Source: a virus (Duplodnaviria; Heunggongvirae; Uroviricota; Caudoviricetes). Taken from it: a stretch of 8,585 nucleotides of DNA. Each line of letters starts with the position of its first letter. Position 1 is the stretch's first letter. Below the pieces are notes generated by a model. The model saw nothing but the letters and a program-made list of their open reading frames with translations, made no database searches and was not told the DNA's origin. Made by a program: the position numbers and the translations under genes. Below, piece by piece: positions 2,789 through 2,862 of this stretch. Where the stretch lies: IMG/VR virus record IMGVR_UViG_649989998_000001, one strand, 5' to 3'.

Positions 2789-2862
2789 TGGAGCGACAGC
2801 GGGAATCGAACCCGCATCATCAGCTTGGAAGGCTGAGGTAATAGCCATTATACGATGCCCGC
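2789..2862 (-). tRNA. tRNA-Gly(UCC)-like, with a defective 3' acceptor strand (possible pseudogene)
   Basis: Reverse complement reads GCGGGCAUCGUAUAAUGGCUAUUACCUCAGCCUUCCAAGCUGAUGAUGCGGGUUCGAUUCCCGCUGUCGCUCCA, with anticodon loop CUUCCAA. D, anticodon and T arms are intact. The 3' acceptor strand is UGUCGC (6 nt) where pairing with 5' GCGGGCA requires UGCCCGC, so the stem has a G-G and a C-U mismatch and is one nucleotide short. Confidence 0.6.

Follow-up and report, generated by a model that had tools for sequence, protein, structure and literature searches.

The chromosomal glyT gene of Escherichia coli encodes tRNA-Gly2, with the anticodon UCC, and lies in the thrU-tyrU-glyT-thrT-tufB operon. 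In lambdoid and Stx prophages, tRNA genes are found in the late region, where they form a tight cluster that serves A-ending codons, with a Q-type antiterminator gene upstream and the holin and lysis genes downstream. Such phage tRNAs are thought to supplement host-rare A-ending codons during late phage gene expression, and the tRNA genes of 933W-type phages are named ileZ, argN and argO. The 3' ends of tRNA genes are also common integration sites for mobile elements. The 933W-type phages carry two or three tRNA genes (PMC4631060), and IS-driven rearrangement has been described in Shigella dysenteriae type 1 (PMC7819885).

The tRNA-Gly(UCC) gene described here lies in a stretch of 8,585 nucleotides, the window, which is contig ADUT01000025.1. 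The original prediction placed a glyT-like tRNA with a broken acceptor stem at 2789-2862. These coordinates are right and the gene sits on the minus strand (Table 1), so that G1 is position 2862 and the terminal A of the CCA end is position 2789. ARAGORN reports tRNA-Gly(tcc) at 2790-2859 and Infernal, with the Rfam tRNA model RF00005, at 2792-2862. The RNA sequence is GCGGGCAUCGUAUAAUGGCUAUUACCUCAGCCUUCCAAGCUGAUGAUGCGGGUUCGAUUCCCGCUGUCGCUCCA. Alignment to E. coli K-12 glyT bears out the description as glyT-like, as 73 of 75 positions match, with one substitution and one deletion.

Table 1. Coordinates of the tRNA-Gly(UCC) gene and its surroundings in the window, with the positions of a related allele in two other loci (last row).
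Feature	Position	Strand	Basis
tRNA-Gly(UCC), prophage-borne glyT paralogue, defective acceptor stem, 74 nt, encoded CCA	2789..2862	-	ARAGORN, Infernal, alignment
3' acceptor strand UGUCGC, 6 nt not 7	2793..2798	-	
5' acceptor strand GCGGGCA, unaltered	2856..2862	-	
Anticodon UCC	2827..2829	-	
tRNA-Thr(UGU), 74/76 identical to K-12 thrU; identical to E. coli prophage copy	2866..2941	-	
tRNA-Arg(UCU), intact	2944..3020	-	
CAU-anticodon tRNA, intact; Met by ARAGORN, tRNA-Ile by RefSeq on homologous genes	3022..3098	-	
3' flank of tRNA cluster, collinear with intact prophages, 1 difference from L001	2596..2788	-	
ORF6N-domain protein gene, upstream neighbour of tRNA cluster	3307..3864	-	
C4 antisense RNA (3916-4000), isrK (4028-4104), c4-a1b1 target (4065-4117)	3916..4117	-	Rfam
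DUF1133 / Q-type antiterminator homologue, late-region start	4137..4691	-	
IS1N, 99.3% to annotated IS1N, truncates prophage; no target duplication	1056..2595	-	
IS1, 90.6% to IS1 in L008, nested in IS1N left end	1085..1850	-	
Chromosomal ybeQ/ybeR DNA, 99.8% to E. coli	1..1055	+ (not a gene orientation)	
IS600 end fragment, 229 bp	4988-5216		
IS600, full	6290-7555		
Val(UAC) allele of the same gene slot, in other loci	L004 3197-3267 (E. coli CFSAN029787); L008 2795-2866		

The sole difference of the window gene from K-12 glyT and from the intact prophage copies is in the 3' acceptor strand, which reads UGUCGC in place of UGCCCGC. The replacement and the loss of one base, both claimed in the original prediction, are confirmed by alignment to glyT and to the intact prophage copies. 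In window coordinates the lesion consists of an A at 2796 (U in the RNA; G in the intact copies, C in their RNA) and a base missing at 2794/2795; in tRNA numbering, the CC of positions 68-69 has become U. No change from K-12 glyT is seen in the D, anticodon (UCC) and T arms, in the discriminator U73 or at the CCA end, in line with what had been said of the arms and the CCA end. The gene is still recognized as a tRNA cloverleaf by the covariance model, with 49.7 bits against a threshold of 29 bits for RF00005. Its acceptor stem does not reach seven base pairs, the best register having six pairs (one of them G.U) and a bulged G. The original prediction counted two mispairs, G-G and C-U, in this stem, and that count depends on the register: with the bulged G, Infernal draws six standard pairs (G1-C, C2-G, G3-C, one G.U, C6-G and A7-U).

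The tRNA-Gly gene is the last of a cluster of four tRNA genes (CAU, Arg-UCU, Thr-UGU and Gly-UCC), with Rfam tRNA scores of 70.5, 56.4, 69.8 and 49.7 bits, respectively, so that the tRNA-Gly score is the lowest. The same set of four genes is found in the lambdoid prophages of complete E. coli genomes, flanked by a Q-type antiterminator/DUF1133 gene and a class II holin gene, and in the intact prophages lysozyme, Rz-type lysis and terminase genes come after the holin. Annotations name the last gene of the cluster tRNA-Gly in E. coli prophages or, for a few strains, tRNA-Val. Of this arrangement the window retains the upstream half, namely DUF1367, YbcO, the DUF1133/Q-like gene, the C4/isrK module and the ORF6N gene, with 98.5% identity between positions 2595-4988 and the E. 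coli prophage L001. The cluster lies downstream of the Q-like gene, in a gene order that matches other prophages. On its other side no lysis cassette or structural genes follow, as the match to other prophages ends at 2595, 195 bp beyond the 3' end of the tRNA-Gly gene. The four anticodons, CAU, UCU, UGU and UCC, match the codons AUA, AGA, ACA and GGA, where the AUA match assumes that the CAU tRNA is of the lysidine-modified Ile type, as RefSeq annotates it.

Several observations concern the surroundings of the cluster. The C4, isrK and c4-a1b1 elements form a P1/Gifsy-type regulatory RNA module between the DUF1133 gene and the ORF6N gene, and this module is identical to that of L001, with 0 differences in 3865-4136. 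A patch at 3174-3262, just upstream of the tRNA cluster, holds 26 of the 42 differences from L001. On the minus strand of this patch, the window and L001 each have a short GC hairpin with a T-run after it, in different sequences, and from its sequence the patch looks like a swapped terminator-like module. A scan of 2560-3320 found no terminator-like site. A promoter-like site at 3137-3108 is intact. The phage Thr(UGU) gene is identical to host thrU at 74 of 76 positions and the intact phage Gly(UCC) gene is identical to glyT at 75 of 75, while the flanks are unrelated, which suggests that host tRNA genes were captured to build the phage cluster.

The prophage has been truncated on the lysis side. 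The IS1 element that had been noticed just beyond the tRNA is an IS1N with a second IS1 nested in it, and it ends 195 bp downstream of the tRNA gene. The nested IS1 is bracketed by a 9-bp duplication, GAACATGTG, at 1076-1084 and 1851-1859. The outer flanks of the IS1N, AAAATATTG and CAGTAAGGA, are unlike each other, and the junction is therefore a rearrangement and not a simple insertion. At 2595/2596 the IS1N meets the prophage, which it joins to ybeR/ybeQ, and the ybeQ/ybeR DNA stands in place of the prophage lysis and structural genes. In addition to the full IS600, a further partial copy of this element lies upstream in the window. The 229-bp left-end fragment of IS600 holds the first ~55 codons of orfA and is inserted ~10 bp upstream of the YbcO start, within the last DUF1367 codons. 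The prophage is a dead remnant without lysis and structural genes.

The original prediction also raised the possibility of a recombination scar at the 3' end of the tRNA gene, and considered it unclear which side of the gene is the older DNA. The altered 3' end would then be the trace of site-specific recombination, with the imperfect copy brought by an element replacing the original, and the mobile DNA close by would be in keeping with such an origin. However, the alignment with intact prophages continues without a break across the lesion and over the next 195 bp, in which there is one difference from the intact prophage, so that the homology break expected of an attachment scar at the tRNA 3' segment is missing. 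Both sides of the gene are the same prophage DNA, and the true junction is the one at 2595/2596. The tRNA-Gly gene is internal to the prophage late region and not at the edge of the prophage. No integrase gene was found in the window, where the only recombinases are the IS1 and IS600 transposases, and the tRNA 3' segment occurs there just once. Given this collinearity to either side of the lesion, and with neither an integrase nor a 3' duplicate in the window, an integration scar can be dismissed.

A second possibility was that the deletion is an error of sequencing or assembly, since it sits in a CCC run, a typical site of such errors. Twelve public contigs carry the gene for the neighbouring ORF6N protein, among them ADUT01000025.1 and CP000034.1, the latter being S. 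dysenteriae type 1 strain Sd197 (PMC7819885). Seven independent assemblies reach the tRNA cluster, comprising two complete chromosomes and several draft genomes, with Sd197 (CP000034) among them, and all seven have an identical 430-nt cluster that includes UGUCGC. The deletion also comes together with a substitution, which speaks against a homopolymer error. Because the seven assemblies agree, an error of this kind is ruled out and the deletion, whose reality had been questioned when it was first noticed, is genuine. The UGUCGC allele is fixed in the S. dysenteriae type 1 lineage.

The nearest relatives of the locus, judged among all fetched loci, are L035, L001, L002 and L072. They are 99.0-99.2% identical to the window over 516 bp, and all carry the intact UGCCCGC strand. 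Only four differences from L001 are present in the window at 2595-3110; the lesion accounts for two of them, and none falls in the other three tRNAs. The intact prophage copies match K-12 glyT at 75 of 75 positions. Since the nearest relatives, at 99% identity, have an intact gene, these alignments indicate that the lesion is recent and derived.

The constraint on such genes was examined with 125 phage-borne glyT-like genes from IMG/VR and other loci, representing 24 distinct sequences; the copies were ascertained by an exact anticodon-arm pattern, and the invariance of that arm is therefore built in. Of these, 21 are full-length alleles, and in them 98% of the acceptor cells are paired. Pair 5:68 takes the forms G-C, U-A, U.G, C-G and G.U and shows nine double-sided changes, three types are seen at pair 6:67, and G4:C69 hardly varies. 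For covariation, the score lies above all 500 shuffles and all slid controls. This compensatory covariation argues that the 7-bp stem is normally kept by selection, and on this alignment the window allele breaks the stem at its most conserved part. Other defective copies have A3xC70, C6xA67 or G4xG69, or are the Val allele and the Yersinia similis copy discussed below; with the window copy these amount to 8 of the 125. The window gene has structural and contextual features of a pseudogene, having lost a conserved element while its close relatives are intact and while its context is one of relaxed selection. The suggestion of a decaying copy is thus upheld by the IS-wrecked remnant, the intact closest relatives and the maintenance of the stem by compensatory change in related phage copies.

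We considered how the lesion would affect folding and charging of the tRNA. A covariance-model comparison, proposed when the gene was first noticed, gives 49.7 bits for the window gene against 64.9 bits for the intact prophage copy with its glyT-identical sequence, a loss of 15 bits on the Rfam tRNA model. With ViennaRNA the intact allele folds as a cloverleaf at -27.5 kcal/mol, with a G1:C72 pairing probability of 0.996 and with the acceptor, anticodon and T arms kept in the minimum-energy structure. For the window allele the bulged cloverleaf is at -17.7 kcal/mol, compared with -23.4 kcal/mol for a minimum-energy misfold in which the 5' GCGGG pairs with the T-stem strand CCCGC at a probability of 0.967, and the G1:C72 probability is 0.006, all in a nearest-neighbour treatment that leaves out tertiary contacts, modifications and proteins. 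The misfold is possible because the first five nucleotides of the 5' acceptor strand are equal to the 5' strand of the T stem, GCGGG.

The identity elements for glycine in E. coli are U73, G1-C72, C2-G71 (plus G3-C70), C35 and C36 (PMC9976931), and all of these are kept in the window tRNA-Gly. GlyRS recognizes C69 and C70 through base-specific contacts and places a loop in the major groove along the first four pairs (PMC9908026). Of these two bases, C69 is removed or replaced by the lesion, and the G4-C69 pair is lost. Given the 15-bit loss in score, the predicted misfold and the loss of the C69 contact, folding, processing and charging are likely to be impaired, which makes the original expectation of poor processing and aminoacylation plausible.

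The retained features could also be read as signs of a tRNA that is weakened yet working, one that adopts the bulged-G fold, is processed and charged less efficiently and still decodes some GGA and GGG codons. In addition to the identity elements and the encoded CCA, the score is well over the 29-bit threshold, the stem can form six pairs in one register, and the promoter-like site and the other three tRNAs of the cluster are intact. Against this, the model places the bulged cloverleaf 5.7 kcal/mol above the misfold and leaves acceptor pairing nearly absent, the family otherwise holds seven pairs through compensatory change, and the contact of GlyRS at C69 is gone. There is also no visible selective reason to keep this tRNA-Gly, as the phage late genes are gone. 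We consider residual function of this kind unlikely, though it is the most credible of the alternatives.

We favour, with a probability of roughly 0.78, the reading that the tRNA-Gly gene is a recently inactivated phage-borne copy of glyT, non-functional or nearly so, in a defunct prophage; the loss of processing, charging and function is what we infer from the models. According to this reading, the gene is a phage-carried copy of the host glyT, the last of four late-region tRNA genes. In the S. dysenteriae type 1 lineage the prophage is truncated by IS1N shortly past the tRNA-Gly gene and interrupted upstream by the IS600 copies, and is a dead remnant. Within this remnant, the recent two-change lesion has left the six pairs, one G.U among them, and the bulged G. 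Most of the transcript would misfold through pairing of the 5' GCGGG with the T-stem CCCGC, and correctly folded molecules would present a kinked acceptor/T helix, one pair short and without the C69 that GlyRS contacts. The pseudogene would then have been fixed by drift, presumably because the phage genes that it served are gone and the host glyT supplies tRNA-Gly(UCC). As a proxy for a functional host copy, 5,421 of the 5,426 E. coli genomes have a glyT-type gene, and in K-12 the gene is intact.

The exact allele was absent from 5,426 complete E. coli genomes, in which the best match, at 97.6%, is the intact form. It was equally absent from INPHARED phage records, IMG/VR and the JGI metagenomes. 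Apart from the Y. similis gene and the Val allele, the scans of GTDB, IMG/VR and JGI returned only unrelated, decayed or fragmentary glyT-like copies. A strand with the deletion only, UGCCGC, occurs in three places, namely the Val(UAC) allele, the metagenomic locus L130 and the Psychromonas locus L005. L130 (metagenome contig Ga0163217_1095857) holds a heavily decayed glyT-like gene beside a tRNA-Thr(GGU), and L005 (Psychromonas aquatilis, a 271-bp contig) holds only the 3' half of a glyT-like gene. These occurrences suggest that single-base loss recurs at the run in the acceptor strand.

The Val(UAC) allele occupies the same gene slot in 8 of the 5,426 E. coli genomes and in the IMG/VR contig L008. 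It shares with the window gene the loss of one base in the 3' acceptor strand and scores 48.5 bits. Unlike the window gene, it has C35A, which makes the anticodon UAC, together with A38G and a CCA end changed to CAA, and its flanks are ~4% diverged. Judging from its sequence, it could be an anticodon-switched tRNA or merely a more decayed copy. One of the genomes with this allele, CFSAN029787, carries a 294-kb plasmid with ospC4. Common ancestry of the two alleles is unlikely, as the window flanks are nearer to the intact L001 (99.2%) than to the Val type (~96%), and from the divergence of the Val flanks a separate origin is probable.

A GTDB scan found the UGUCGC strand in a second lineage. 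The prophage tRNA-Gly(UCC) gene of Yersinia similis Y228 (L006 3366-3439, NZ_CGBP01000003.1) has the 5' strand GCGGUCA and the 3' strand UGUCGC. It is paired with a Thr(CGT) gene, within a homologous late region made up of DUF1367, YbcO, Q, these tRNAs, a holin and a lysin. In its closest relatives, L141-L143, the gene is intact, with 75 nt and the strand UGGCCGC, and the holins are 92-96% identical; the tRNA flanks closely resemble those of Y228, the 3' flank being exactly the same in two of the three. Each of the two UGUCGC alleles has near-identical intact relatives, and the parental strands differ, which rules out common ancestry. These comparisons indicate that UGUCGC arose twice independently, from UGCCCGC in S. 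dysenteriae and from UGGCCGC in Y. similis. The neighbouring tRNA-Thr, which has GTCG in its 3' strand, was considered as a template and is not supported, as it would give the wrong length and the motif is absent from the Yersinia Thr gene.

The appearance of the same strand in two lineages is unexpected under purely random decay, and it might be taken to mean that UGUCGC is a repeatedly selected state of phage-borne tRNA-Gly(UCC) and not random damage. The two origins, each beside near-identical intact relatives, speak for this explanation, and the Yersinia locus retains holin and lysin ORFs downstream. Scans of GTDB, IMG/VR and JGI found no deletion-only intermediate with a UCC anticodon in otherwise intact genes, which counts in its favour as well. 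However, only two lineages are involved, and the Yersinia case comes from one draft genome and from an exact-sequence search, with the ascertainment bias that this entails. The allele is absent from all other collections, the recurrence of one-base losses in the plainly decayed L130, L005 and Val genes suggests a slippage hotspot, and the C-to-U change lowers the predicted stability of the stem and restores nothing. We therefore regard selection as improbable, more so than residual function. The two changes in the window lie no more than 3 nt apart, and the convergence could reflect a mutational hotspot plus chance, helped by a search that was able to find only this outcome. If selection were nevertheless at work, UGUCGC might confer resistance to acceptor-stem toxins or altered reading-frame maintenance, or might be favoured for fully silencing a harmful, half-broken tRNA. 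The recurrence in Yersinia is the only element of the locus that could lead somewhere new.

With inactivation in a defunct prophage as the preferred reading, the locus gives a clean negative, in that its oddity would be ordinary prophage decay in an IS-eroded genome and not an integration scar. It would also provide a dated example of the first step in the death of a tRNA gene, with one lesion and the other bases unchanged, in a family of phage-borne glyT copies that appear normally to be selected for a paired acceptor stem.

Compared with the known systems, the window gene is nearly the same as chromosomal glyT in sequence and differs from it in having unrelated flanks, in lying in a prophage tRNA cluster and not in the tufB operon, and in its UGUCGC strand. 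It resembles the late-region tRNAs of lambdoid and Stx prophages in the Q-type antiterminator upstream, the tight cluster and the A-ending codons, whereas the side on which those prophages have holin and lysis genes is here IS1N and chromosomal DNA. The set is also larger than in the 933W-type phages, with four genes that include Thr(UGU) and Gly(UCC), of which Gly is damaged. With attL and attR junctions at tRNA 3' ends the locus shares a change confined to the 3' end of a tRNA gene and the presence of mobile DNA nearby, but it has no homology break, integrase or duplicated 3' segment, and the tRNA is not at the prophage boundary. The likeness to tRNA pseudogenes in decaying Shigella-type prophages lies in the breakage of an element conserved in the family, in surroundings riddled with IS elements and under relaxed selection, and in the fixation of the allele in one clone. 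In contrast to these pseudogenes, the window copy has one small lesion and is otherwise, at every position, as in the functional gene, so that its probable inactivation was very recent.
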